Below, piece after piece: positions 8,428 to 61,410 of a DNA stretch of 64,000 bases. Source of the DNA: Phoronis australis (lineage: Eukaryota > Animalia > Phoronida); the NCBI GenBank assembly GCA_002633005.1, contig NMRA01000059.1, positions 1,017,133-1,081,132 on the forward strand, in the 5' to 3' direction. A model generated the notes under the pieces. It did not search any database, was not told the origin of the DNA, and saw only the letters and a program-made list of their open reading frames with translations. Both the position numbers and the translations under genes were made by a program. Position 1 is the stretch's first letter. Every line of letters starts with the position of its first letter.

Positions 8428-8744
8428 ATGTCTACGCTTGGCCTCACTATGGGCTTGTCGAGGCAAGACAGTAAGAACTCTGGCGAGATGGCCGTGGAAA
8501 TGGGGGAGCTGTTGCGCAAGAACAATCGCTCGTCGTCAATGGCAACAATTGAAGGTGATCTGCCTTCGAGCGCCAATTCATGGGTCGACTTCAAGCCATC
8601 TAATCAGCTACTTGAACGTAGTTTGGCTGCAAAGTATAACTTAGCACGCCACAAAGTGGCGCCAAAAGCCACGATTCAGGGACGTGTGTATAATTTTCTG
8701 GAGCGGCCGACGGGATGGAAGTGTTTTATCTATCATTTCACTGT
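8428..8744 (+). CDS. KCNQ1: KCNQ1-like K+ channel, coding exon 1 (cytoplasmic N-terminus to start of S1)
   Basis: First ATG after an in-frame TAG at 8401. Encodes ...[24 protein letters not shown], near-identical to the human KCNQ1 pre-S1 motif [24 protein letters not shown]. Donor GT|GTAAGT at 8745, phase 2. ATG 8449 is an alternative start. Confidence 0.9.
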
Positions 8745-25115: not shown

Positions 25116-26095
25116 AGGCCCTTTCATATTGACTTCCCGTCTGACCAGAGCGTCCATCAGGGCTTGGAATTTTCCGCGAAAATGCGGATTTCTGCTTTTT
25201 TCAAATGTTCTGTCCGCACATTTTATTGTATTTCCGTGTAAAAAAAAAAACGGATTTGATGTAAAATTTCCGCGGCAAATTCCTTTCTTACCGCGGCGTT
25301 GCAGATGACATTCACCTCGAAAAGCAGAAGTTGCTCTTTATGTTTTGGAGGAACGTAAGCTGTCAACATTGCCGGGGCATCTGGGATAGCGTGGAGGGAT
25401 TTTCAATGGCGTCTCGTGTTCTTGTAAACTGCGGCGACAAATACTACGGCTCTGCAGCCAAAAATGTGTGGGTTGGGAGTGGACGGACGACCTAAAAGGA
25501 CGCAGACGCATGCTACTGGTGGTGGTAACGTTTTTTTTTAGTCCTCCCGATTTTTGTCGGGGAAAGGTTCACATCGACCATTTCAAGGCTGGGTAGCGCG
25601 CATGATTTGGGCCGTAAAAGTTTCCGCGTTTTTTGTCATTGGTCATTCCAAGCCCTGGTCCATGTAAACTGCGAAGCTAACTGAACCGTTCATACTGGCT
25701 TCGCTAGTTAACGGACATCAAGTTAACAGTAGATTACGCTGTTTTCATCGAAGTAACCACAAGGTAGCGCTAATGCTTCGCGTGCACGCTTAGATTTTTT
25801 TAATGTGACAATTTGGGAACATTTACATGTGCTTTTTGCTAATTCGATTTGTGATTATTCGAGCAACCTATTAGCAATGACACTACCCTTTAATTGTTGA
25901 CGACGACAGGCCTGGCAGTAACTTCGATGGGACCAAAGTTGACCGTTCATATTGGACCGCAGCGTCGATGCTCCGCTTTTAATCCACCTGTTTACTGCGA
26001 AGTTGACTGGCGCTGTTAACTTCGATCCAGGACGGAAGTCAACTGTTCATACTGCTACTCCTCAAAACAGCGCGTCGACATTAGTATGAAAGAGA
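25116..26095 (-). mobile_element. Family H MITE copy 3 (inverted), interrupted by a nested insertion
   Basis: Starts aggccctttcatattgactt; contains tttttaatgtgacaatttgggaacattt (reverse complement of the family core); split at 25157/25658. Confidence 0.75.
25158..25657 (+). mobile_element. ~500-bp hAT-like MITE with 6-bp TSD, copy 1
   Basis: TIR CAGGGCTTGGAAT...ATTCCAAGCCCTG; TSD gtccat at 25152-25157 and 25658-25663. Confidence 0.9.
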
Positions 26096-27162: not shown

Positions 27163-27659
27163 CAGGGCTTCGAATGACCAATGACAAAAAAAACGGAAAT
27201 TTTTACTGCCCAAAACATGCGCGCTTCCCAGCCTTGAAATAGTCGATGTGGACCTTTTGCCGACAAAACTCGGGAGGACTAAAAAAACGGTGCCACCTCC
27301 AGAAGCGTGTGTCTGCGTCTTTTTAGCTCGTCCGTCCACTCCCACCTCCACACATTTTTGGCTGCAGAGTCGTAATATTTGTCACCGCGGTTTACAATCA
27401 CACGAGACGTCATTGAAAAATCCACCATGCTATCCCAGATGCCCCGGCAAAGTTGACAATTTATGTTCCTCCGAAACATAAAGAGCAACTTCCGCTTTTC
27501 GAGGTAAAAGTCGTAGGCAATGCCGCGGTAAAAAAGGAATTTGCCGCGGAAATTTTATATCAAATCCGATTTTTTTTGCGCAGAAATATAATAAAATACG
27601 CGGACAGAACATTTGAAAAAAGCGGAAATCCACATTTTCGCGGAAAATTCCAAGCCTTG
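27163..27659 (-). mobile_element. ~500-bp hAT-like MITE with 6-bp TSD, copy 2 (inverted)
   Basis: Reverse-complement similarity to copy 1 along its length; TSD atcaaa at 27157-27162 and 27660-27665. Confidence 0.9.
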
Positions 27660-29167
27660 ATCAAAGGGTATTTATGTAATCAAAGGTGGGTGTTCACCCA
27701 TACCTCCAAAAGACCTAGATTGTAATATTGGTGTCAGCTTATACCTGCGCGAGAGTCCAGCAAAAATGTTGCAACTCGCGGTTTGTTGTTAAGCAAATTG
27801 TGCGGTAGGATTGCTAGCTGAAATTATCTTGCTTTGGGCTTGTAAGCTGACAGCAAGGGCATGTAAAAGTGAAAATTGTGAAGAATCAGGGTTGGGTTTA
27901 GTTAAATCTGGCTCTAACTCCGTACAAGTTAAAGTACTATCTGTATGCCAGTTTACTTTGATGACGCTGAAAACATAAGACTCTTGAACTAAGAACCTGT
28001 TTTGTGGTCTGTAACCTGAGGTGGTCAATGCAAAGTCACAGTGTGTCCTAATTAGTTTTATCTATATGTGGCTAGCAATTAGAGGAGATTCATCTGTCAA
28101 CTTCTCATGTGGTCACAATGCTGCCATTCACTCATCAATATGTGCATACGAACTAATTCCAACCTTACTTCGTATTTTTGATATATATGTAAAACTCGAA
28201 ATGTACATTTGGAAATTTAAATAGAGAGCTTAGTGTTTCAGGTCAAATGTGTACAGAACACAGAAATTAGAAGAAATTCTCTTGGTGTGGACTACTGAAA
28301 TTTTTTTTTTAAACTTATCAACGAAAATAAAAATTAAGAAAATTCTATTTCTATTTCCATTTTAGCTTGGTGTATGCTGTGTAGGTGTCATGTGACATCT
28401 GGTAAATCTTGTGATAGTAGTAACGATCTAACTGACATTTGAAAAATGGAAAACTGACTCTTTTGGCAATTACTTTTGTACAAATAAGTGAAGAATAACT
28501 GTAGGTTTGCAGAGTTATGTCACCATGATGGACAGAAAGTGAGGGACAGAAAGTGAGGGACAGAAAGTTTACCTTGACACTTATATACTTACCTGTTTGA
28601 TTAATGACTGCTATGCTTGCTCATTGATTTAGAAACTAAGTTATATTTATTGTGAGTTAGCAACATAAACATAGCATACTAATACGGCTATAATTTGAAC
28701 TGATCATTGCCAGCAACAACAAAGAATTTTAGAACATAGCTAAAATCCTGTGTAGTAAAGGGCATTTGGCATTAATTTGATGTCGCCAGCTTTTTCTAAA
28801 TGCTGTATGTATATTTTACAGAAATTCTAATTACTTCGCATTCATGAAATTAGATATCACTGACGTACCATACAATTATTCATGAAATGATACTTGCTGG
28901 TATGAATTACTAAAAAAATCAACAATTATAATGCGTATTGTAAGTTTTGATTACATTTTGTTAAAATGAAGCCTATTGCTTAAAGTTGCATTTTGCTCCG
29001 AAGTTGATCAACTGGCCTCTTACTCTCATAAAATAGGTCTCATGGTATTCTTTGGGTTCCATTTATGTTACCAATGCAGTTAATGCATACATCCCCATGT
29101 TCAGTTTACAATTTTAGGATTGGCCAACCCTAATAATCGTTTCTTTAGTTAATGATGATTTTTATGT

Positions 29168-30054: not shown

Positions 30055-30512
30055 CAAGATACCTAAACTACACGGTTAACCGGTTAACGGACTCATAATC
30101 ACGGTCACAGACGCACGAACAAGACTCACGTACCTGCAAACACCGTTCACTGACTCACAAACACGGGAACGGACTCACAAAACACGATCCATTCACCCAA
30201 ATACACGGGACACGGACTCACATTCACGAAGAAACACGGTTAACGGACCTCCAAACACGGTTCACGGACTCATCGGCTTCCTGGGTCCGCTGACATCTAC
30301 ATTTTGTCCGTACACTGTGTTTGGCGGTCCGTTAATCGTATTTCTTCGTGAATGTGTCTCCGTGTCCGGTGTATTTGGGTGAATGGATCGTGTTTTGTGA
30401 GTCTGTTCCCATGCTTGTGAGTCAGTGAAGGGTGTTTGCAGGTATGTGAGACGCGTTCATGCGTCCGTGACCGTGTTTATGAGTCCGTTAACCATGTAGT
30501 TTAGGTACGTTG
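30055..30512 (+). mobile_element. Foldback-type MITE with ~200-bp inverted arms and 5-bp TSD, copy 1
   Basis: CAAgaTACCTAAACTACA...TGTAGTTTAGGTAcgTTG; TSD agtta at 30050-30054 and 30513-30517. Confidence 0.88.
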
Positions 30513-36752: not shown

Positions 36753-37307
36753 AAAGCACGTAATCACTCTAATTTTACTCGATAAATTCTTGCATCTGTA
36801 ATGAAATGAAAGCCATGTTTATAGAATGTCTTCATGTTTTCAGTGATGTCAACGGTTGTTTATGAGCTGACAACCATACCACAATGCATTTGAAAAATAA
36901 TCGTCAGCGTTGCTATTTAAGTTTTGTCATACATGAAATCCTAAATGCTGACTTTGTTAGTTTTGTATGAACTGAACATTCCATACTGCCCAATTGCTGA
37001 TGCCTTTTATTGCAGGTACCATGATGAATATACTGAATCTCCATCATCTATCCATTAAGCTTGCTTCAACTGAATGTGTCAGTTTGCCTGATCTTCTGTT
37101 CCTAAATTTGTTTTACAGACTCCAATTCATTTTCATTTTATGGCTTTTGTATCTTTTTCCAGATACCATTGTGATGCTGTAATGATAGGCAGTGGGCTAG
37201 CTTAGCGATCTACTCACGTCTGATGCAATGTGTATCCACAACTTGCACTATTTTTGAAGCTGTTTAGCAGTACAAAGCTGATGACCAGTGTCTTGTTTCT
37301 CTTCCAG

Positions 37308-37398
37308 CTTTATGATGGTCCTGGTCTGCCTAATATTTAGTGTGTTGTCCACAATAGATCAGTACGATTCTTTTGCAAATGAAACGTTGTTCTGGATG
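37308..37398 (+). CDS. KCNQ1: KCNQ1-like exon 2a (S1, S1-S2 loop, start of S2): [30 protein letters not shown]
   Basis: Acceptor tcttgtttctcttccag, 91 nt, phase 2 to 0, donor ATG|GTAAGT. Matches human exon 2 [30 protein letters not shown]. Not shown in the ORF track. Confidence 0.93.
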
Positions 37399-38071
37399 GT
37401 AAGTCCCATTGGTAGATTGTAGTTGGTGGTAGAGGAGATTGAGCAATCAAAATGTGCTGACGTTCTGTTACAAACAAAATGACCTCACCTGCCAAGAGTA
37501 TCACTGGATGTCCAGCTATTCATTCTTATTGAAGCTTTGTCGAAATCGGAGATAGTCACTTACAGGTATTGTGAGAACCAATTTGACGCCCATTATTCAG
37601 TGGACTGGTTCTCAAACGCGGGGACCCCAAAAAGTGACAACTTTGAAATTGATGTTTGTTGTAAGCATGATATGCCCGCAAAAACCAAAATTTTGTCTCC
37701 TTACAGAAAAATGTATTTTTTGTTCTAAGCAACCTAATATGTGACATTAAGTTTGTGGAAGATTTCAAAGACAGGTGTATTAAACACAAATACTGCCTTT
37801 TCAAAACTTCAAACATTGACATGTGTTTTGGTTACACAGATTAACGTGAAGGTCAGCACATTTTCTTTGCAGTACCAATTGAACCAACTGAATGTAGACC
37901 GTCGTCTGCCTCTCTGTGTCACCGCATGCCTCTGTTGTCTTCTCCATCTTTGTAGTCTGCACCTTGCTCTGATGCATGCACAAAACTGCCTCTCATAAGC
38001 CATGTTTACACGAGAGACTGCTGACCCTGTCACAGCTGCTCCAGTGCAAGTGTGTGTCAACACAACTGACA

Positions 38072-38112
38072 CGGTGCGGTGCGGTGCGGTGCGGTGCGGT
38101 GCGGTGCGGTGC
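38072..38112. repeat. (CGGTG)8 microsatellite
   Basis: Directly visible. Confidence 0.95.
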
Positions 38113-38918
38113 ATGCGAGTGACACTGTGGCGGCCAGTTTTGACACGGTTTGATAAGCAGAGCCAGTTACACTCTATGAGTTGCTTCAGTGTCAACTATG
38201 TCTGAGCACAACTGTGGCAGGGTGGAAATGGTTTATCTTTCAATGCGCTTGCACAATAGCGTATATTCGGTGATGAGCCGGGATTCCAAGTGGTGTGGAC
38301 ATTTGCAACGGTTTATGGGAGCATGCGCAGACAGTCTTCGTGTAAGTGACGTGGTGATCCAGTTTGCAATGTTATGTTGTGTAAATGCGCCTAAAGTGGA
38401 GCAAGTCGTGCCGTGACTACTGACACGGTGACAACGGTCTCTCGTGTAATAGCGGTTATAGATGCTGGTGTGTGACTGAGAATCAATCTCCACCAATTTC
38501 AAAGCACATGCAGTTGTGGCCTTAGCAATTGTTTACAGCTCCTGCTATTTTGTAACCGACGTTCACCGTGACCATAAAAAACCAAACAAATTCATTTTGG
38601 CTAATCTCATTCAAATTCTTAAAATTGTGTAAGAATAATTGGGAGTTATGGAGCATTTTGATGAAGCTTGCTTTGCGTAACAAGAAGGCATCATACTACT
38701 TGTAGGCATTCCTCTATCTTCTGCTATCTGCTCGTTATCTGTTATCCGTCTCAACCTCCTTAGCGTTCATTTACAGCTTCTGCTACGTATTGTTTCTGTG
38801 GTGTTGAATTGGACCCAGACCTACGGTTTCTGTCGTTTGTTATGTGGCCATCTTTCTTTTACTTCTTTTATATCTTTCAGTACAAATGTATTGTTCGTTT
38901 TTTGCCATAATCTCCATG

Positions 38919-39108
38919 AAATTACTTTGGTCACATCTCACAGACGTTGTGATTGGACAGGAATAAATTACTTTGGTCATATCTCACAGACGTTGTGATT
39001 GGACAGGAATAAATTACTTTGGTCATATCTCACAGACGTTGTGATTGGACAGGAATAAATTACTTTGGTCATATCTCACAGACGTTGTGATTGGACAGGA
39101 ATAAATTA
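38919..39108. repeat. Minisatellite, 4 x 46 bp
   Basis: Unit aaattactttggtcatatctcacagacgttgtgattggacaggaat at 38919, 38965, 39011 and 39057. Confidence 0.95.
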
Positions 39109-42100
39109 GTTCATGATGAGCATTTGAGAAAATCTGTCAGTTTTTTAAAATTCCATATCAGCTTACAATGCGAATTTTTAGTCAAACCTATAACAAAAAT
39201 GTATGCGCATCTTTTCCCATCTATTAAGACGCTCTAATTCACTATCAAAAAACTGTAATGTTTAAAGGTATATTGAGTGTTTTTAGTTAAAATAATCATT
39301 AGCTTGCGACATCCCATTTCACGCAATATTGCAAGTGTTATAGAAAAAGCACTAATTAAGGAAAGAAATTCTAAAGCAATAAATGTCAATTTCGTTGATC
39401 TTCCTTCGAGGATACCACACATATCACGTGGGTTATTATACTCTCTGTTGTAATTTCATTTCTGGTATTGCCCATTTCCTTATTATGACTTGTTGACACA
39501 AAGTGAATGTGGCTAGAAATGCTTGGAGCTGTTACTCCTGAGGCACGATTCAACATGAGATTCGTTGTCCTTACCTATTAACCTTGACTGGGGAAAATGT
39601 TTATTTTCTCCAGATAAATCGCCCTTATTGTCGATCAGCGTCTATTGTCGCATTATTTTCCCTGTTCACCTCAGTGCACTGATTTTCAAAATGGTGGTCA
39701 AGTTAATGAATATGGCATCGACCACCAGTCATCTCTGGTTGCTGATTCGTCAAGTGCCACCATTATCCAACGGAAATGTGGAATGTAAAATGCTGATGTC
39801 ATCAATTCTTGTGATTCTCTTGTGAAATCTCACCAATTCTGACAAAAATAATTGTCAAAATTGGTCCTTGTTTGTTTTTCAAAGGCTTCTAAAATTGTTG
39901 TGAATCACCAAAATTTCTTAGAATCATTGTCAAATGATAGCTATGGTATAGATCTTTAAAAATGACATCAATAATTAGGTATTTAACCAAGCAAAAAAAC
40001 AAAATTTCAGTTGCCCGCCATGTTGTGTCCAAATTGGTGTGATCATACCGTACATAGCGCCCTCTCTGATGCTGCTCTATTTTCCCACCATGGTGTGCAT
40101 CTGTAATGGAGGTGCCCCAGAGTACTACGCTGCAGCTGCTTTGCTAATCACTGTTCAAATTACATTCAGTGTAAGCTTTCCATTCATCAATTCAATGTCG
40201 ATAAAAAGTTTTTCTCAGTGTTCCTTTGTAAAGGAGACATTAACATTTTTGAAAAGTTGAGCGACGCATTGGCTCTAGGTCTATTCTATAACCCGTTTTT
40301 GTACCTCCACAAAAGTGGACAGTTGAATCTAGATGTAGTGATAGAACGAATTTTGAGATCAATAAGTGATGCTCATTAAATTAAACCACTCATTGGTGCA
40401 GTTTTAAGTTGAATACATCTGCACATGGCTATCCCTTGATTACAATGAGAAGCCCTTAATTATAGAAATAATCTCCCCTGTGTCAAAAGTTAATGCATTG
40501 TTATGATGTTTTTTTGATGAATGGCTTCGAAATTGGTTTTATTTTTTTCTTCACGCTTTTTCATGATTTCCAGTAGTTGAGCATTGTTTGTGTTTGTCTT
40601 GTTAGAAGTGTAATCTCATTTCCATTAACATCTAAACTGCTCGTTTTAAAAATGATATTAATTAAACATGGTCTCATGTCATTTCATGTTTCATCTACTT
40701 TAAGCTACGGTTTCTGTGTTATTTTATTTCCATCCTGTAGCCGCAACTTTTTATCCGTCTCAAATATCAGTTAAATATTCTATTGAATACCAATGTGTTT
40801 GAAAACTGAGACTCAGCTAATGTGGGTTATTTTATCATGATTACATTTATGATCTCATTTGTCACAAACGGTGCCAAAATGTGACAAGACTATTAGTCTT
40901 CAATAACCATCGTATTAAATGTTCAGCGTTTTCAGCCAATCAGATTGCATGTTACATAGTTTAAATTGACTGAATTGTTTAGACAGGCTTTTTCAAAGCT
41001 AGGTTCATTTTGATTTTTAGTTCATTTTTGTCTCCAACATAAAAATATTTACTTCTAATTTCTCAGGTCTCCTTCACCCTAGATTCTTATAAGTTGATGA
41101 TTAATTGTATTTGAAATTTTGATATGCTATACTTGAAATTTAGGAACCCGAACGGTAAAATCACCTTCACAGATGATGTGGGTTCTTACTGTTGCATTTG
41201 TGACCACCTGTTTCCCTTAGGCTAGATTTTATCTCAATTGATTTTTTGTTCATCAGTGTTAATTCGTATGAGAAGTGTGCATCACAACAAGTACCTGTAC
41301 ACCTGGGGTGTTATACACACCAGTAAGCAAGTAAGGCCGTGTGTAATAAAAAGTTTGCAGAAGGTAATCTTCAGTTACAGAACGGACTGCTTGATGCTGG
41401 TGTAAACATTCAGTATTTAGGACTGTCTTTGTCCATCCGCAAGCAACACAATGTTGTTGGCACAATACCTCAACAAAGAAGCTTTAAACTTTGTTCATAT
41501 TTTGTGTCCGGAGCAACACCAGGTCCTAATCAATAATGGTGACCTTGACATGACAATTAATTTGAAGGTCACAGCAGAAAATCAAGTTTCAGCTTGGGGG
41601 AAATGTTATTGGAGTGATTTCTGAAGGATGAAGCTTCTGATCATGTTCAAATTTTGTTTTAGTCGGGGCATTTCCAGTCGTCAGTCAAATTAAGCGTCCT
41701 TGACCTCTTGACCTTGTTATCAAGGTCATCATAAGAGATTTTAAGAGTTCTAGTTGGAATTTGCTGTCATTGCAATGCCTCAGGAAAGAAGCTTTACATG
41801 TGGTTAATATTACACACTGTTGTGAGATGGGGCATCCACACGCATCACAATGTTTTGGCAACCTTGACTTTGTTTTCAAGGCCAAAGCAAGAAATTTTTA
41901 TAACCATTTTACTGGGAAAATCTTTTGGCACGGTGGGGTTTATCTTCTCATCCAAATAACCAGTGGAGAGATGCTGCCACTTATACACAATTCATTCCAA
42001 TGCAATACTCACCCAGGGCAATAGGGAAAACGGGGTTGCCCAAGACAATTATGATGAGAATTGCTACTGAGTTAATCTTTTCTGTGGGACATCCCCTGTG

Positions 42101-43416
42101 GTCTTGAGCCAGAAAAGTAAATAAGTTAAGGGCTCTCATGGAAAGCAACACTGACTGGCGATGATTTTAGGCCTTTTGATTTTGAGTGCAGACGATATAC
42201 TCTACATAATGTCTACACTTATCCGCTGGACAACCTTTATTGCTGCATGATGGCAAAAGTATTGTCCAAGTGTGGAAACATGATATTCAGTGGCGTGTTA
42301 CTTTTATTCCATGGAGCCCCCTCATCTGTGCTGTTTGCAAGTTGTCCAAGATAAACAGCTTCTGTGTGGTGGACCTTCCACATCTGGCAAAGATGAATTG
42401 CTTGTAATATATCCTCCCTTATGGTTTGTTATCACTTGTTTATGAGTCTGGCCTCCTAATGATAACCTGCTCTGGTGACGGCTCCCTCACCGTTTGTTTT
42501 TTATTTCCAAGTCAAAAGAGTGATACTTTCAGCCAATCCTACATGGAGTTGCTCCTGTTTACTGTACTATGAATGTGTTACACTATATGCCCTAGGGGGA
42601 CCAGCATCACTCATGTCACAGTTGAAATGTATCATGAGTATATAGAATGTTTCCTGTAAATTATGTTGGTATGGAAAGTGGCCCCAATTTTGTTCAACTG
42701 GTCTTCAAGACTGAGGGTTTCTGTTAATTTATGGAATGCTGCTGGAGAGTTCTTGAAAAATCGTGATATTTTCAAAATCAAAATACCCCGTAGTTTGGCA
42801 GTAGCCTCTCCTATAGATAAAATTTGTTGAACACACAACAGTGTTCACGTTTAATAATTTTCAACGATATTCCCTCGTATCTTTGAAGGTTGTTCGCAGT
42901 GCAACAACTGCCAAGAGACATAAGAAAATTAAAGATTAAAACGACAGCTATATTTTTGAGACTGTCAAATACCGTTAAAATTATTGATTGTGAACAATTT
43001 GTTGCGTGTTCAATAAATTTTGTTCTTTTCATAAACTTTTGTTTATGTTGAGGTAAATTTGGTTACCCCAGCAATTAAGGTCTGTTGGATAAAAAGTGGT
43101 TGTTTGTGAACACCTGCACCCCATTATGCATATTGCTAAATTTGACCGAACGAACGCGGTCTATCCTTGTAATGCGGTCTATCCTTGTAATGCAGTCTAT
43201 CCTTGTAATGTTTGATCTTAATTGTTATTAAAGCCATTTCTGTGTTAATAATGATTGCTGAAAAAACTACAGTCGAGTATTACTAAGGTAAATCACATTT
43301 TACTAATCTTAGTTGAGACAATAACCTTTTTAAACATTGATTTTCAAGCTTTGGAAAATATTTACTATTGGTTACCATTGCTAAGGGAGCTTGAATAGGT
43401 GTGTTGGTTGTTAATA

Positions 43417-44510
43417 TACCGTAAACTAGCGGGTTTAACGCCCATGACCGGGTATCCACAGCCGACTTTCACGAAGTTTCAATGTAGCGCCTACTTTTTG
43501 GGTAATAGCCCGTCCCCACTTTGCACTAATTTCAGCCTGTCTGGTATTCGATCATCCCCCACTTACCGCTAACAGAATTTGAGCTTCAACTTGTGCTTTT
43601 GTTCGCAGCTTTGCATCGGGCTCGGACTTTGTGTTTTCGGCAAACATGGCATGCTTATGTACAATGCAGTTTTTAGCCGGCATTTGTGGAATAACTTATG
43701 CACCGCAACTACCATTTCTTAAACTTATTAACTGATCTTTTGTTAAATTAATATAGGCTAACACCGTAGATTTTTGTAGAACTGTCGCTTTTCCTACTAC
43801 AAGATTAGTCATGGTTCAGTTATGATCTTGATCCTACTGTGAAGTTATTTACGTGTACAAATTGCATGCACAGAACACAGGATTTTGCTAGATTTATCTC
43901 TTGGGTCGATCCAGATTTGAATTACGCAATTAGTCACGCCCCCTCTTTGCAATTGCACACAATTTGGAGCACGGGATTTTGCTAGACCCCGGGTCGACCC
44001 TGATGTTTGTATTAGCAATTGATCACACACCCCTCTCAAAGTTTGTGTCGGGCCGGATCGAATCGTCCGTGTTTTAATCGAGGAAACGAAATGTAGTCAC
44101 GTTCACTGAACTGAAGCAGTATTTGCTGATATGGTATGTGGACTGCCATTCCAGTTTCATAAAGTTCTACGGTATGACATTTTGCAGTGCTCTGATATAT
44201 TTGAAAACATCTGAGCTTTTAGCAGTGTCTCCCGAAATCGCCCTTTCAAAGTCGAAATCCTGTATCTGTTTGGTCCGTGAGAAACTTTGTGGTTGTCGGT
44301 TTGGCTGATTGACTGAACTTAATACATTGGTTCCGTGTTGGAAAGAACACCCTGCGAGCTTGCCTAGTTTGGCTAAAATTTTTATGTAGGTGCCCACCCC
44401 GACTTTCCAATTTTCGGTTTAAGCGCCTACTCACTGGGTAATCGCCCACCCCCTTGTCTCGGGGTTTCGCAATTTAAACACCCAGGGCATTTACCCGCGA
44501 GTTTATGGTA
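43417..44510. mobile_element. ~1.1-kb non-autonomous Tc1/mariner-pogo-type element between exons 2a and 2b
   Basis: TA|CCGTAAACTaGCGGGT...ACCCGCgAGTTTAtGG|TA. CpG-rich relative to its flanks; internal repeat gggtaat.gccc..ccc; no transposase ORF. Confidence 0.75.
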
Positions 44511-46383
44511 GTATAGTAGGACAGATTACACTAACTTGAATTCTAAATCAATTTATTGTAAGTGCTCTTGTATTCTATTTATTGGTAAAATGTGACAACT
44601 CATCGTAATGTAGAGGGCGCTATAACTGTAAAATCCATAAATACGCATTTCTCTGAAGAAATAATTGTCTTTTGAAAAATAATATTGAAAGCTTGTAGTT
44701 CGAATATCAAAAACGTTATGAATGAGATGCAGAAATAAAGATGGTCGCTTGTTTGCTCTCCGGTTAAGCAATTGTGTAACGTGGACATTTGTGTCGTGAA
44801 ATTTTCTCAAACACGTTGATACCTTTGTCTTGCCATCAACATTATCTTTTTGCTAAATTTTACCAAAAAAGGCACAGTCGCAGGAGCCAATTAAGGACAG
44901 ATTGTTAATAAGACAAAAATCAAATTCTAAAGTCCCAGTTGAGAAAAAAGCTACTTTTACTGAGTTAAATCTGTAGTTTTGTAGAAATTTGGCAAAACAC
45001 ACTTTTCAATAAGGTCTTACACTATATGGATACATTGTGTTAGCATATCCTTTAAGCTGCAACAGTTTCAGGTGATGGAGTTTTCACCAAAGGTGTTACA
45101 AGCACACTGCCTTCGTGGTGAACCAATGAACTGTGTCGCCATATTGGAGAGATATCCCCATTATTGCTAAATTACCATTTAACTGCAGGCATTTCCAGTA
45201 TGTGTAAATGCCAATTGGCCACATCATCAAACATTGATAATACGTCAATATTGCTATAAGCCAAGGCCACACCATGCTAAACTGGGGTAATTTTGGTTTA
45301 ATGGCAAGACCTGACACAGAAATGTCCATATGATGATTATCATCATCGTCGTCATCATCACCACCACCATCATCATCATTCTCATAATAATAGTAATGTT
45401 ATTAATGACAAAAATATATATTGTGAATGTATTAGTAATGACCCCTGCATCAACAAAGAGCGATGCTTGGTTACAAGCAAGCATAGCAAACATTAGCCAT
45501 AGATGAAATTCTCTCACCTAGCAAAACTGTCATGTACAGGTATTAAAGCGAAACCAACCTAATGTTCTTTGTCAAAATTTGGAGTTCCGCTTCCTGGGAA
45601 TCTGAGAATTTGGGCTACAGGCTGTTTTAAGAGCGTTTTGATGAACACCACATTTCATTTACATTGAACAGCGTTAGTAGTTAGTCTTTCCAACTAACAC
45701 CCTGTCAGGTGTCAGTTTATAAAATAATTGTCCCAAGCTCGTGGTGGTGAGAAAAATGTAAAAAGTCAATAATACTGGCGCCATATTCACGTCTCATAAG
45801 ATATTAATAAGTTCATGCAATAAAATTGTCTGGTGCTATGTCTCGCACAAGATGTTGTCATAGACGATCCATTAAACGATGATAACATGAGAGTTAAGAT
45901 ATACCCAAGAACTCGATCACACAGAATGACCACATATACCCAACTCCTCAACTGAACGAGTGCAAAACTGATTCTCTTCACACTTATTATTAGTATAAAG
46001 ATGCAAAAATCGCCAAGCCTAATCTTTGTGTAGTTGTCTCCCCTTTCCTCATCGTTTTGTTTACTTTGATGTTTCTCTTCCTGAAAGCCATGTCTTCTGT
46101 CTCCTACAAACCACCCTATATGTTATTTACACCGTATTAATTCATTGATTTTTTGCAGTTATTGTCTTCGGCTTATTGATGAATCATTCTTTGCAGTAAT
46201 CACTTCTTCCCTCCGCCTCCCCCTATAACATTTTACGCTTCACCTTTGCCTTCAACACAGCTGACCTCTGACCTGCTAATCGTCTGCTGGTGCCCTTGTG
46301 GTGTGTGGTGGCTCCCTCTGTTGGCAGACGTGTTGCCAGTGGCACCCCCTATTGATAGTCTCTCTGTGTTGCCTACATTTTAG

Positions 46384-46474
46384 GTTCATGATGGTCTTGA
46401 TCTGTCTCATCTTTAGTGTTCTGTCAACCATAGATCAGTATGTTGAGTTTGCCAATGAATGCTTGTTTTGGATG
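46384..46474 (+). CDS. KCNQ1: KCNQ1-like exon 2b (duplicate of 2a): [30 protein letters not shown]
   Basis: Acceptor tctctctgtgttgcctacattttag, 91 nt, phase 2 to 0, donor ATG|GTGAGT. 70/91 nt and 26/30 aa identical to exon 2a. Confidence 0.92.
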
Positions 46475-47563
46475 GTGAGTTCTATTTTTTCGCTGACCTG
46501 TAATCAGCTCTGTGTTGTCTGGTGTGTCTACTGTAGTTATTGTGATCACTCAATTTTTAGAATGGCACCTGCTTGCATTCCTTTTTAACATACAGCACTA
46601 AGTCTGTGCGACTGTGGTACTAATTCTTTACACCTGCTAGTTAGACTTGCACTTCTGGAAGTTTTAATAAAATGTGTTCGTTTTACTCAGATGAAGAATA
46701 ATGTAAACAGCAACCTATACTTGAAGCGAGTGTGTACATTTTATGATAACATTACTGATGGTAGGTGCCATCCTCCACTGTTGCCGAATTCAATTTTTTG
46801 TTGATCTTTTAGCTTAATTGCATGGCATGCTATCTGTGTTGCCATGGTATTTTTTGTGACCAGATTGTATTCATCTCAGCACTAGATTTGATTTTGACCC
46901 AGTCTCGTTTGATATCTAATCTAGATGTGATGTGTGTTAAATTTTCACAAATTCAAAACTTTCTTTGTTCTTTCAAGCTGAATGGTTTGAATCTATAACG
47001 GGACTTATTAAACATTTATCATTACATAACTCACTTTGTTCAGTTTTAAAAATAATTCAAAAACATTACAGGTGAAGCAGTAATTTAAAATTTTATTTTG
47101 AAAATTCGATAAGTTGAATTCTGAAAATGGATTTATATAAAACATTTGATAAAATGTGTCTTTCTATTTAGTATTGTTGCTATTTTTGTGATGCATTTTG
47201 GCGTCAATAAAAAGTGTTGAATGTCAAACAAACCCATCACCCTCATGTTATGTAAAATTGGTCTTAAATTGTGACTTAGCCAAATTGGGGGAGATTTCAA
47301 GGCTTAGAAAGAACAGGCAGTTGATTATTGCTTGAGACCAAGTTTGGCATGGTGTCTCAGTGCTGAGCGTGGTCTCAAGGAAAAACCAAGTGTCAGTTCT
47401 TTGGAAACTTGGAAATCACTGGTCATCGGAGTAAGGAGCAACTTGGGACCAATTTTATAGTGGGGAGTGGTCTGAATCAAAAGTTGCCTTCTTGGATGGA
47501 ACTTGTATTTATTGTGGTTTAAAAATGTTTGTTAGTCCCATTAATCTATCGTATGTTTTGCAG

Positions 47564-47690
47564 GAAATTGTGCTGGTTGTGTTTTTTGGCGTTGAATATC
47601 TGGTCAGGCTCTGGTCTGCTGGTTGCCGTAGTAAATATATGGGTATCAGAGGACGGTTTCGGTTCGCTCGAAAACCTATCTCTATCATTG
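47564..47690 (+). CDS. KCNQ1: KCNQ1-like exon 3 (S2 and S2-S3 linker)
   Basis: ttttgcag|GAA...ATTG|gtaagc, 127 nt; [42 protein letters not shown]. Confidence 0.96.
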
Positions 47691-48787
47691 GTAAGCAACC
47701 TGTCTTCACTCAGGCGTTGAAAACTGCACCTCGTGTTTTTTGCATGACAAAATCTTAAATTTTGGTCCACTTGCGCAAATTACCAATAAAAATAGTGGCA
47801 ATGGAAACTCAAATTTCTGTAGTTGTCGCAAGTGAAACAAGCGACAAACTAGAAATTCCTGTGTTAGGGTAAATCAGGTGGATCTCTTTAAGCTGTTTGT
47901 TCTCTGTCTGTTCAGTTGTCAAAAAGAGATACCTTTATTCATTAGCACCATCTGGAGAATATCGAGTCGTCCATTACCACTCTTCTTTTGCAAACTTCAT
48001 CCTGTTGCACAGTAATTAGAGACCTGGGCTTTGTTTCGTGAAAAGTGACTTAAAACTTAAGACAGAAATTTGGTCTTACACTCCACAGAACTATATCTGA
48101 AAAACAATTAAATCTCACTTGAGCAAAAGGCTATGTAAATATAACTGCTACTTACTGTATCAGATGTGATTTCTATCTAGACTTTGATGCATTGGTAATT
48201 ACTTCAGGCTGAGCCCTTGTCTTGGTAGGTTTCCCATTTTGTACAAGAAATGGGGAGGAAGTTTCTACCTAGATATTTTTTCTTATAGCTGCAATGTTAA
48301 GTGACATGAATTTTGTAGCAAAACATTTTTGTTGACTGTGACTTGATGTACACTTTCATTGGAATAAGCATAAAATTAAAAAGAATATGTCTAAAATCGG
48401 ATAATTCATAAATTTGAGGGCGGTTTTATGATTGTTGAAAGCGGACATTGTTTTTCAAAAAAGCCAATGTTTGTTAGTCATGTTTTGTATATCAGTATGC
48501 TTATTTTCCAAGATCGATGTCAAAGAAGTCTTTACTATGTGATCTAATTAATATGTGTTTGTCCTTATGAAAGCAAGTTATATTGCTGTATAGTTCAGTA
48601 AACTGTTAAGGTTTTACACTGACTAGATTGAAAATCGTTTTCCACTTCACTCACTCCTGTCTATATGCTGAAAACAAATGCTGGGATTGCTGACAATGTA
48701 ATGTCAATTTTGTTGACTTGTAATGCCTCACTCTCTTGAGTATTGCGATACAAGAAAGTGTACATTTTCTTGACTTGTTTCTTGCAG

Positions 48788-48866
48788 ATCTTATAGTCGT
48801 TGTTGCCTCCATGATAGTGTTGTCATTTGGTTCCAATGGTCAGGTGTTCGCTGCCTCCGCCATCAG
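48788..48866 (+). CDS. KCNQ1: KCNQ1-like exon 4 (S3 and S3-S4 linker)
   Basis: cttgcag|AT...ATCAG|gtgagt, 79 nt; DLIVVVASMIVLSFGSNGQVFAASAIR. Confidence 0.95.
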
Positions 48867-49036
48867 GTGAGTTTGGCCTTAGTCTTGAAACCCATGGGGG
48901 AGTTCTATAAGGCTAGTGGTCTTGCGAGTTTGCGTAGATCTTCCTTGTCTACGTGATACATCACCTAGCCAAGTGCGTAACCTCTCCAGCTTCACTCTGT
49001 AGGCACAATTGTCATTAAATGTTAATAAGATCCAGT

Positions 49037-49737: not shown

Positions 49738-49977
<240 letters not shown>

Positions 49978-51127: not shown

Positions 51128-51271
51128 GAGCTGATCACTACGCTCTACATTGGTTTTCTTGGTCTTATCTTCTCCTCCTATTTTGTTTATCTCGCTGAGA
51201 AGGACAGCGGGCGAGAGAAGGGCGAAAAGACAGATTTCATGAGCTATGCAGATGCCCTCTGGTGGGGTGTG
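51128..51271 (+). CDS. KCNQ1: KCNQ1-like exon 6 (S5, turret, pore helix)
   Basis: cccacag|GAG...GTG|gtatgt, 144 nt; [48 protein letters not shown]. Confidence 0.97.
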
Positions 51272-52081: not shown

Positions 52082-52192
52082 ATCACAGTGACAACCATTG
52101 GTTACGGTGACACGGTGCCCAAAACATGGATGGGAAAAATCGTAGCCTCCTGTTTCTCCGTGTTCGCCATATCTTTCTTCGCCCTCCCAGCC
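52082..52192 (+). CDS. KCNQ1: KCNQ1-like exon 7 (selectivity filter and S6)
   Basis: cctttcag|ATC...GCC|gtaagt, 111 nt; [37 protein letters not shown]. Confidence 0.98.
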
Positions 52193-52779: not shown

Positions 52780-53148
<369 letters not shown>

Positions 53149-54256: not shown

Positions 54257-54325
54257 TGTCTTTGGCGAGTTCATGCGGCAGAGAAGACATCAAATTCCTT
54301 AGCTACCTGGAAAATGCATATCCAG
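54257..54325 (+). CDS. KCNQ1: KCNQ1-like exon 9 (completes calmodulin-binding IQ helix A and TW motif)
   Basis: tctcctacag|TGT...CAG|gtaagt, 69 nt, phase 0-0; CLWRVHAAEKTSNSLATWKMHIQ versus human [21 protein letters not shown]. Not shown in the ORF track. Confidence 0.92.
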
Positions 54326-55951: not shown

Positions 55952-58900
55952 GTAACGGTTTTTCTGTCCCACAGTATTCACTGCTTGGTGTCTGTTAGGG
56001 CTGTGCTCATTGGCCTATCAGATGTGTGTTTGTCATCCTTACCAACATTTTACAATGAAAAAGCAGGACACCTGGATCTACTGCCAGGTGAAAATGTGTG
56101 CCCAACACCCAAAAATGTCATGCCATATGAATTGTTTTTTCGTAGTCCATCACGAAGGTGAAAATTCACTTACTACAATCTTGTTTGTTGTGGATGATTT
56201 GAACATTTCCACCCTCTATGAATGGATATTTTTACCCTCAAAAATATCATGCCGACAGCTTTTTTTTCTTTCCATGTGTAGTTGTGCCTGTGAAATAGAA
56301 TTGTGAAGTAGGAGTTTATAGTGTGGAAAAGCACAATAACACGCGGCCACGTATCAACACATTGGCGCAAGTGGGTATAAATATCACATAGGTCATAAGT
56401 GCAACAGTTGGTTACTCCAAGTTATTTATGTTGCATTCATCTTGTAAATATGACTAGTCGAGTAAAGTTCTGGACAACTGGGTAATACCGTATAGTGCGA
56501 TAATGGCTTTGAGAGATAGGGCACCTTGCAAAATGCTTTTTTTGAAAGTTTTATTTCAAATGAACACTTGTCTATTGGAATATGCTACAGTCTGGTAGGC
56601 CGAGTTATTTCATACTGAAGCCTATATTTTCTGTAAGGCAACAAAAATATCACTTAAGTTAAAAATTCCACTGAAGTGAAGGGATTGGACTCATCAATAC
56701 TTGTGTTGTTTAGCACTTGTTCTTCTACTGAAGTCCTTGACATGTCAACTTCATTGCCCAGTCTTTTAAACATTAAAAATCATATGGACACTTCCTCACA
56801 AAGCAGAAAGTTTTCCATCAATGATCGGAAGTTCCCCTTGAGTTTAGAGTTGGCTTCGGCTAACCCAAAGATGCGTCTCTTCCGAAGTTTGGTGTGGAAT
56901 TGTTGGTGACCAGGGGACGGTTTAACCCTTGTGGGACAAAATTCCTCATTCAAAAAGGGAAAGCACTATTCCTCAAAGGTGATCGAGTGTTGCCAGGGGC
57001 GGGTGCGTTCTTTGGACCCGAGAAACTTCCCAAAAGGCAAGAAATGGTGTAAGTGAAGACAAGTGTTATTTTCAGGAACTCAGTAGCATACCACAGTAAA
57101 ATGGCAGCCTCTGAAGTGTTGCATTATGGGATAGAATTTACTGTTTCCATTCCCTAGTGATGATTTCTCACTCTGATTGCTTCCTGGGCGACTTTTGCGC
57201 TCATTGACCGTACTCCATTTCCATTCTGCTGGTGACCAATTGCTATCCATGACCTTCACCCATCATAACGCATTTTGGTTGTGATAGACCGACCCGAAAA
57301 ACCTCTCCTCATTTTCGGGTCTTTGGATATTCCTGAGAAAACCACAAACCTTTGCTTGGCCATTGACATGGGGTTTCAAGACTATACACATTACCTAATG
57401 GCCTTTTACAGTTCCATTGCTACAACAGGCCTAATTACCATGTTTATTGCCCCTACAGCCCCAATGGGTAATAAACTATTGAAATCACTGATAAAAGTGT
57501 GTCCAGTTGATGCTCCTGTAACCCCAGAGATTCTATCACGAACATTTTGCGTTATGCCCCAGTGGGGTCTAATGAATGTGAACACACCTCGTCTAATGAG
57601 CACAGTCATATGTTGTATGCCAGTACTTAGAATAGAGTGGCCGATCTGTAGTGAGATAGCTGCTTGCTTCAATGTATTAGTATCTAGTATTCTATCCCTG
57701 ACCCCCTTTGCTATTATTTTCTCGTGCATGCCCAATTTATTTTACTTCAGCAAAACTGGTGTTTATGCCTTGATCACATATCAGGTGACGGTTGGCCGAT
57801 TCCTCTGATTGAATTTTATCGCCATGCCTACAGCGTGATACTCATAGTCTCTATTATTTCACAAATTGTTGGTTTTTGATATTGACACCCTGATAGCACT
57901 CCCAACAATCTCGCAATATTGGCCGACTTACGGCTGAATTTTGAACTTTTTTCTGCTGTAAAGTCATCAGATCAGTGTTGCAGGCTTTATATGACTGAGG
58001 CATCATTCAGGCTTAACCAAGGTTGGCATAATTGTTCTTATTCATTAAATTACCGGTCTAAAATTTGATATTCTCGTGCTGTTAACAACATTTTACACAC
58101 TGTTCATGAACCTAAAAATGTTTATAAAAATGCATGTGATTTTTGTAAATAGTATATTTTTGTAAATAGTATATTTTTGTAAATAGTATATTTCAGCCAG
58201 TGGTCAAGTGTCAATGATATTTCATGGCTAGTTCTTCTGAGTTTTAAGTAATTAAAAATACCTTAAAGCCCCATTATTTTGGTTCATGTTTTCATTTCGA
58301 ATATTTGTTTGTTTGTTAAACACTGTCGGTGTTTCTGTCCATACATCAGAAAAGCGTGGATCAATTTTAGTTCATTTTATTGACAACAGGAATATTCTCC
58401 CTCATTATCTTGATATATTCCAGTTTTAGGTTTGCAATTTCAGGTTGGATCAGTTAGTACTCATGACATGGTTGATTGATTTTTGATGTTCTTAAATCTG
58501 TTATTATTTTTTTCACACACAAACATGAAAGCAAGTTTTTTCTCAATGCTCCATTCATAAAATTCCAGGATATAAATCCTTTCGTAGTTCCAATTCCATT
58601 TATTGTCAGTTAATTCCTGTAACAAACATAAAAAGTTCTGGTTAAATTTTCAAAAATGCTGTCTGTGATGGCAATATCATTGATTCTGATTTCTAAATGT
58701 TGTCATATATTTGTGATTTGTCTAGGGTCACAGGGTGTCTCTTGAATTCCACATCTGACTATGATAAAAGTCTAAAATTCTCATGACAAAATAGTGATTA
58801 TTATTTTGAAATTGCGAACATTACGTTTAATTCATTTGTCAGAATTTTCTATGCCTGTAAATAAATCCTATAATACTGTTATTTTCTCTTGCTTTATGTG

Positions 58901-60137: not shown

Positions 60138-60327
60138 GACGCCAAGTCTCATCATTCCATGCAGGATAAAAAGATCTCGCGGCGACCGAGCCTCATCAAA
60201 AGGCGTAAGTTCTCCAAGTCGCGGCTGGACCGCACCGACAGCACCGTCAGCAATCACGTGTCGTCGCTAGACAGGAGGGAGGACGGTTGTGACAAACCTA
60301 TGTTTTATATAGAAGACACAAAGGGAG
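60138..60327 (+). CDS. KCNQ1: KCNQ1-like exon 10 (basic, Ser-rich helix A-B linker); 3' boundary uncertain
   Basis: ccttgctcgttccag|GAC. GC-rich coding-like island, in frame with exon 9: DAKSHHSMQDKKISRRPSLIKRRKFSKSRLDRTDSTV...EDTKG. Best distal donor GAG|GTGGGT at 60328. Confidence 0.75.
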
Positions 60328-61410
60328 GTGGGTATTGGCAAGGCTGCTGTGTTTTTGACAGAGTGTTTTAAAAATGAAATCCTTTGAGCTGAATTAGTTC
60401 CATAGACAAGTTCCTGACCACCTCAACCCTTACGTCAAGTTTAGGCTGTGCTTCAAGCAAAGTAAATTTTAGGGCTCCGTATGACGTTGCATTTTGTTTG
60501 GTCAGTGATGGTTAAGGTATGGGAAACTGCGCATGACTTAGAGCCATGTTACAGGTACTGATGGACTGTCGGAACCCACCCTGTACAAATAAAAAATGTT
60601 TATTCTGGAAGGGCAGTCTCAAATTTGGACAACTAGTATGTACTTACAGTAGATTTTCATTTACCATCCCCCTTAATAAGAAGCAAAGTGTAATGTTCAA
60701 TAATTCTTTATGTTATTTAGTGTCGGTAATCACAAAACATCTTGACCACTAACACTTGTTATCATTTTTCGGCTGATACAGAGATCTGACATAGAAATCT
60801 CACCATTTGTGTTGTAGCGACAAAATTTAATATGCTTGTGAAACGCACGTACGACAGAGGTATTGTAGAACACTCGCAACTTCTCATTCTCTGAATTCAG
60901 CATTTGCTGCTCACAAAACTGTCCCATCTCTACACGCTAATCTCTTTACTAGGGTCTGGTTATAACTTGAATCTTTCTTTCGTTTACTAAGTACACATGT
61001 CGACGTTAACTCGCACTCAGTTGGCTTTGTCATGCTCTTCAAATTGCTTAAAATACAATAATTTCTCAAAATTTAAATGCATGAATGCTTGATCAGTTTT
61101 TGCAACAGCTTGTTCAAAAGTCATTAGCCAAGGGTTGGCTAGTATTGCGGCTCATATCCGAATTCTTGCTCGTTTTAAAAGCCTGGAGATTTTATTGCTC
61201 TTAGCTACTGTGTTAAGTACTGCAAACTATTTTTCAAGATGATTCGGGTGATGGTAAGTGTGTGTGGTGTTCTGATGTATTAAGTCACATGGGTCAAGTT
61301 ATGAGATGCAATTAGCTGATTTGAAGTCACATGACCTGTTCACATGACTTTGTCCATATCAGTCACTGGTTGATTTGTTCGCAAAAAATGTCAACACCTT
61401 GCACTAGCTT

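Follow-up and report, generated by a model that had tools for sequence, protein, structure and literature searches.

Old tandem copies of exon 2 in a Phoronis australis KCNQ1 gene, likely spliced as mutually exclusive alternatives in the voltage sensor

In the SCN genes, which encode voltage-gated sodium channels, exon 5 covers the S3-S4 segment of domain I. More generally, voltage-gated channels show an enrichment of alternative exons derived from tandem duplication, which have been gained repeatedly, in 4/14 human and 5/13 fly families (PMC9741552). Here we report on two copies of exon 2, designated 2a and 2b, in a KCNQ1 (Kv7.1) gene situated on a 64,000-nt stretch of the Phoronis australis genome (contig NMRA01000059.1, positions 1,017,133 to 1,081,132 of the forward strand), which is referred to as the window. 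The two exons are old, intact tandem copies that are likely spliced one or the other, which would give rise to two full-length Kv7.1 subunits. They would thereby resemble exons 5a and 5b of SCN1A, SCN2A, SCN3A, SCN5A, SCN8A and SCN9A, a tandem, mutually exclusive pair in a voltage-gated channel with few residue changes, in which inclusion of both copies or of neither likewise generates products of the type removed by nonsense-mediated decay (NMD) (PMC12772994). The SCN pair differs in that it belongs to sodium channels, is common to the vertebrate paralogues and has been shown to undergo a developmental switch (PMC12772994), whereas the present pair lies in a potassium channel, encodes the S1-S2 segment, has its copies 9 kb apart and is known from sequence and a few reads of 2b. 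Kv7.1 would thereby join the Nav, Cav and BK channels, for which the enrichment is already known.

Within the KCNQ genes, a mutually exclusive candidate has been predicted in human KCNQ2 (cluster 1817), the peptide of which we take to lie in the cytoplasmic tail and not in the voltage sensor. In addition to residing in KCNQ2, that cluster differs from the present pair in that its exons measure 133 and 124 nt and bear a weak likeness to each other (PMC5740500). The IS4A/IS4B exons of the Drosophila Cav2 gene cacophony are comparable in forming an invertebrate, mutually exclusive voltage-sensor pair that is not present in vertebrates, yet they alter S4 itself and shift the activation voltage, whereas the four residue changes described here fall in the outer S1-S2 region and are known from sequence only (PMC11828482). 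The homologous exons of KCNMA1/slo provide a further instance of a potassium channel with independently gained tandem alternative exons (PMC8373072, PMC9741552); the term ‘kcnq’ occurs 0 times in one supplement file of each of these two papers, that of the latter possibly lacking gene tables. The available parts of PMC9579139 and PMC10018040 contain nothing on a duplicated KCNQ exon, and an additional report concerns invertebrate KCNQ1, the same protein family (10.1101/2025.09.21.677649). A preliminary description of this DNA, prepared from the sequence alone, had known of no such pair in a KCNQ voltage sensor, and we found no report of a duplicated KCNQ1 exon in the literature searched, which lacks most subscription papers and the Drosophila catalogue of mutually exclusive exons. 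As far as this incomplete search shows, the pair would be the first duplicated alternative exon to be described in a KCNQ1 voltage sensor.

Exons 2a (37308..37398) and 2b (46384..46474), both on the forward strand, are 91 nt in length and encode the same portion of the channel, namely S1, the S1-S2 linker and the start of S2, corresponding to residues 130-159 of human KCNQ1 (the register of 2b being taken from 9u7f_A). The AG/GT borders of each copy are intact (TTCCAG / GTAAGT in 2a, TTTTAG / GTGAGT in 2b), the reading frame is open, and both run from phase 2 to phase 0. The 8,985-nt intron that separates them (37399..46383, forward strand) was found to be devoid of any copy of exon 1, 3, 4 or 5 by nhmmer and tblastn. 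The copies differ at 21 nt, with 13 codons changed synonymously, one of them split across the junction with exon 1, and with four residue changes from 2a to 2b (V/I, D/V, S/E and T/C), such that 26/30 residues are identical. When joined to exon 1 and exons 3-9, either copy produces an open frame of 370 codons. Inclusion of both copies reads VHDGLDLSHL before a TAG inside 2b, and the skipping of both brings a TAG into frame at the seventh base of exon 4, hence both combinations are unproductive owing to a premature stop. The coordinates, borders, lengths and shared phase of the exons, their spacing of about 9 kb, the tally of nucleotide and codon differences and the two translated stop outcomes all agreed with the preliminary description. 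Its assertion that exactly one copy must be used holds insofar as the frame allows one copy per productive mRNA, but the frame is silent on how that choice is made.

A self-BLAST of the window aligned the two copies over 105 nt (E 6e-16), and an nhmmer profile of exon 2, constructed from 58 outside sequences, returned exactly two matches across the whole window (E 2e-25 and 4e-23), with the next at 0.67. Profiles for exons 1, 3, 4 and 5 each returned a single match. The earlier claim that no other exon is duplicated is consequently upheld for these four exons within the window but does not reach the exons past about exon 10, which encode the C-terminal part and lie outside it. Exons 2a and 2b are homologous neighbours of equal length and phase. 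Their flanks were without relation, as had been supposed of the surrounding introns; in-register identity was 24-37%, and the scores of local alignments were equalled or exceeded in 79 and 68 of 200 shuffles.

Across the 30 whole codons, 13 differences were distributed over 16.7 synonymous sites and 7 over 73.3 non-synonymous sites (Fisher p 8e-8); the synonymous sites are saturated, past the limit of correction, hence no numeric dN/dS is given. The copies are identical to each other at 70/90 nt and to exon 2 of other animals at 61-75/90 nt, and since they are as diverged from one another as from the exons of other animals, the duplication is old. Saturation at synonymous sites, together with the unrelated flanks, indicates that both copies have long been under purifying selection. 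Simulations in which one copy evolved neutrally were scored among those replicates that reached at least 10 synonymous codons, a replicate being taken to resemble the observed pair when it had at most four residue changes and no stop. With one copy neutral from the start, 68/12,000 replicates reached this number of synonymous codons and 0/68 resembled the pair, and with half of the branch neutral the proportion was 17/744. Both copies were thus constrained for most of their history, and the earlier proposal that the duplication is old and that purifying selection has acted on each copy was supported by the site counts, the simulations and the flanks alike.

The splice sites of the two copies are on a par with those of the gene's other exons. 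The donors match U1 at 7/11 (2a) and 6/11 (2b) positions, relative to 6-11 for the other exons of the gene, and the acceptors contain 16/20 and 15/20 pyrimidines, relative to 12-16 elsewhere in the gene. The peptide of 2a is identical to those of relatives at up to 28/30 residues and is at least as close to them as is that of 2b. Both exons are accordingly intact, with compatible splice sites and a signature of purifying selection.

RNA data were selected by species label and comprised three sets of raw RNA-seq reads from a single study (X1-X3) and a contig set (X4), all mapped to positions 36800-49000, with the exon 1 joints lying outside the mapped stretch; the reads used amounted to 18-19% of each raw run, and a joint was listed at 3 reads. 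Exon 2b is spliced to exon 3. The corresponding GT..AG joint (46474>47564) was present in X2 (5 reads, 2 starts) and in X3 (2 reads, 2 starts), the 7 reads from these 2/4 runs all being first mates on the minus strand, and it was absent from the X1 and X4 lists. Two pieces of dispersed repeats, at 37568-37604 and 48032-48128, drew RNA reads of other loci in large numbers, on either strand, and dominated the read tables of the mapped stretch; reads on 2a were not directly visible. In the bin containing 2a, minus-mate bases exceeded the repeat's share by 260 in X1, 220 in X2 and 187 in X3, and X1 had no depth on 2b and some in the exon 3 and exon 4 bins. This excess is a weak hint in that it fits a few reads of 2a, but an equal excess would result from repeat alignments of greater length or from a single read pair in the intron. 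Exon 2a is presumably spliced in some tissue or stage.

Several results weigh against the interpretation of 2a and 2b as a working pair of alternatives, and are considered below together with rival explanations. No joint into or out of 2a was listed in the four runs at their low depth, hence the count of junctions proposed in the preliminary description succeeded for 2b to exon 3 and yielded nothing for 2a. Furthermore, the simulations tolerate a late loss, in that 233/2,644 qualifying replicates resembled the observed pair when the last 25% of the branch was neutral and 1,418/4,949 when the last 10% was, and a recent loss of 2a within the last 10-25% of the branch may be compatible with them. 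These figures, along with the 2b joint being the only one seen in the RNA reads, favour an explanation in which 2a was long an alternative exon that has recently fallen silent, such that 2b alone is now used and 2a is a young fossil. Against it, the frame of 2a is perfect, its donor has the consensus GTAAGT, its acceptor is strong, and it is 2a that keeps the conserved T155 which is changed in 2b. The blank for 2a is itself weak because of the 3-read listing threshold, the 18-19% sampling and the fact that the exon 3-exon 4 joint was also unlisted in the four runs, the depth having been too low even for this joint. A 2a-2b joint was likewise not listed in any of the four runs at this depth. 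We consider the recent silencing of 2a to be rather unlikely.

The manner in which one copy might be chosen also bears on the paired use of 2a and 2b. In comparisons of 15 pairs of regions lying no more than 600 nt from the exons, no competing RNA pairing rose above that of shuffles (best 4/100), and of 32 inverted repeats in the 36-48 kb interval, the longest 25 proved weak and none of these was convincing. In the SCN genes, RNA structure and Rbfox2 act on exons 5a and 5b, and inhibition of NMD barely alters their exclusive use, NMD not being the main cause (PMC12772994); the frame rule alone is therefore not to be taken as the mechanism here. Steric exclusion is ruled out by the 8,985-nt spacing, and the splice sites of both copies are all U2-type GT-AG, leaving no U2/U12 mismatch. 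Putative splicing-factor motifs are in only mild excess upstream of 2b (8 YGCY versus 2.6 expected, and 7 TCTT/CTCT versus 2.4). It is proposed that the splice sites of 2a and 2b compete in a regulated manner over the 9-kb intron, and that products containing both copies or neither would be removed by NMD.

The choice of copy could alternatively be tied to the promoter, with 2b being joined mainly to a first exon of its own in the 9-kb intron, so as to encode a channel that is short or has a different N terminus, and 2a being joined to exon 1. Lophotrochozoan KCNQ1 isoforms beginning at exon 2 or shortly upstream of it are in line with this (Lingula X2, Tubulanus X2 and several Octopus models), as is a locus with two exon-1-like stretches (L049), and the mapped reads show 2b joined on its downstream side only. 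No exon-1-like sequence was detected between the copies, however (best nhmmer E 0.089), no joint from the 37399-46383 intron to 46384 was listed at low depth, and transcripts containing exon 1 would still be required to skip a good 2b, all of which renders a promoter-linked choice improbable. Finally, a paralogue chimera, with exon 1 and 2a from one KCNQ1 gene and 2b onward from another, brought together by rearrangement or by the assembler, would accommodate the 70/90 nt identity, which is within the range seen against exons of other animals (61-75), and the two KCNQ1 genes of several molluscs in the set, but it is very improbable given that the window contains no second exon 1, 3, 4 or 5, and that a mis-join of haplotypes, one form of the mis-assembly envisaged in the preliminary description, predicts near-identical copies with shared flanks where the copies are in fact diverged and their flanks unrelated.

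Returning to the alternative use of 2a and 2b, the distribution of the pair is a further point on the negative side. Relatives were sought by a scan of metagenome contigs, from which 80 of 116 confirmed exon 2 loci were kept; the nearest relative's exon 2 is identical at 75/90 nt, and no close relative is among the loci compared. A second exon 2 was encountered in 0/80 loci, 11 of which span exons 1-3 on one contig and have a single exon 2 (11/11). The boundaries of exon 2 were as here in 79/80 loci. Ten protein clusters were also inspected, representing Lingula, Tubulanus, Capitella, two Octopus genes, Haliotis, Patella, Mytilus, oyster (15/53 members listed) and one more (15/41 listed), and among the listed members no named species had two exon 2 peptides. 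Two sets of models (P0263/P0265 versus P0261, and P0276/P0280 versus P0275) were rejected as exon 2 splice pairs, as they differ outside exon 2 too. The pair looks lineage-restricted because no second exon 2 was present in the 80 loci or the listed isoforms of the clusters.

The four residue changes reduce the weight of the finding in addition. In human numbering, 2a has V135, D149, S150 and T155, and 2b has I135, V149, E150 and C155. Among 107 distinct exon 2 peptides, variability over the 30 positions is highest at 149 and 150 (2.8 and 3.0 bits), and position 135 toggles across species between I (64) and V (36). The human KCNQ1 variants V135I and A149V are wild-type-like (PMC5842040), and T155C has served as a spin-label site in the isolated KCNQ1 voltage sensor (PMC7069725), which suggests that this change is tolerated. 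The significance originally attached to the pair was overstated in this respect, since the changes fall at the most variable sites of the exon, two residues of 2b are wild-type-like in the human channel, and voltage-gated channels are enriched for pairs of this kind; what is described is a familiar kind of event, with few residue changes at mostly tolerant sites, seemingly confined to one little-studied lineage.

Nonetheless, the pair amounts to an experiment of nature on the S1-S2 segment (human 130-159), in which human variants at position 150 lower the current. The variants A150T and A150V traffic normally and have a low current (PMC5842040), and A150 sits in the S1-S2 loop that touches S4 during activation (PMC6743773). 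Position 155 is occupied by T in 99/107 protein peptides and by C in none, and the peptides of the loci have T in 33/34 and S in 1/34. Both subunits presumably fold and work, the net charge of the 2a and 2b forms being equal. The four residues that would set them apart are spread over S1, the S1-S2 linker and early S2, and the two forms would probably differ slightly in gating or in the size of the current. Any such difference would arise mainly from the acidic residue that is moved from 149 (D-S in 2a) to 150 (V-E in 2b), next to S4, a shift expected to have a modest effect on gating or current, with T155C as a second candidate source. We place the chance of a measurable functional difference between the two forms at about one half. 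A fine-tuning effect of the four changes is likely, because two of them are at the most variable sites, V135I and A149V are wild-type-like, and A150T and A150V lower the current. Should one cell produce both forms, mixed tetramers would be possible.

A second case was identified in another animal's KCNQ1 (L001), where two 79-nt AG/GT copies of exon 4, encoding S3 and the S3-S4 linker, are present between exons 3 and 5 (L001:10880-10958 and L001:11439-11517). They are 480 nt apart, and of their 25 codons 12 have synonymous and 7 residue-changing differences. The frame runs on into exon 5 with either copy alone and is broken when both or neither are included. This is an independent candidate for a mutually exclusive pair in the same channel domain, and it suggests that such duplication recurs in KCNQ1. 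Tentatively, it is conceivable that single exons of the voltage sensor have been duplicated several times independently in the KCNQ1 genes of invertebrates, as with exon 2 here and exon 4 in L001, and that these genes alternate between the copies, thereby tuning the outer face of the sensor, in this instance through the acidic shift from 149 to 150 beside S4 and a Cys that occurs in no other KCNQ1 examined. If this were true, Kv7.1 currents would be diversified by splicing, alongside or instead of accessory subunits.

The remainder of the gene was also delineated, with every exon on the forward strand. Coding exon 1 (8449..8744) extends from an ATG at 8449 to the start of S1 and ends in a phase-2 GT donor; its tblastn matches are to KCNQ1, the best E value being that of Lingula anatina. 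Exon 3 (47564..47690) encodes S2 and S2-S3 (human 160-201), exon 4 (48788..48866) S3, exon 5 (49818..49914) S4 and S4-S5, exon 6 (51128..51271) S5, the turret and the pore helix, exon 7 (52082..52192) the selectivity filter TIGYG and S6, and exon 8 (52888..52983) the end of S6 and helix A, and it is followed by coding exon 9 (54257..54325). A probable exon 10 (60138..60329), the 3' end of which is not fixed, shares 41-45% identity with Lingula and Capitella KCNQ1; when it was used as a query for relatives, 0/4 candidates were confirmed. With either copy of exon 2, the six-transmembrane core, including the TIGYG filter and helix A, is intact across exons 1-9.

Exon 3 scored 65-70 bits to KCNQ1 chains versus 38-49 to those of KCNQ2-5 (structures compared: PDB 9u7f, 6uzz and 5vms), and with exon 2b as the query 10 KCNQ1 sequences ranked ahead of KCNQ4; judged by this similarity, the gene is a member of the KCNQ1 (Kv7.1) subfamily. 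The top-scoring named proteins among 288 were those of Lingula anatina, Tubulanus polymorphus and Capitella teleta. In a tree of 22 rows, comprising the window protein and 21 others hand-picked across clades, it grouped with Lingula at 71% support, and the gene is most likely, though not firmly, lophotrochozoan-like with Lingula as its nearest relation, and of non-molluscan origin within that group.

Several other features of the compared loci were recorded. In L006 (L006:1107-1322), exon 2 is continuous with exon 3, the intron being missing, unlike the other 79 loci. The exon-1-like stretches of L049 (L049:3473-3565 and L049:7943-8014) are homologous at their 3' ends, share the donor phase and are situated upstream of a single exon 2; they are likely duplicated alternative first exons. 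Three Haliotis KCNQ1 models (P0173, P0244 and P0245) contain a 6-residue insert between exons 2 and 3, at the start of S2, that is possibly a micro-exon, and the other isoforms in the cluster are without it. Among loci L002-L080, several assemblies gave at least 3 different exon 2 peptides on separate contigs, which suggests that several KCNQ1 paralogues exist in those animals.

Within the window itself, intron 1 (8745-37307) is 28.6 kb in length, compared with 0.7-1.3 kb for the introns from 2b to exon 9. It contains several inverted-repeat pairs in the range of some 450-500 nt, among them 25156-25657 with 27163-27661 and a palindrome of 450 nt at 30060-30507, as well as numerous minisatellites. 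The sole stop-free frame of at least 150 codons in the window (57269-57808, forward strand, 179 aa) is located within the intron that follows exon 9.

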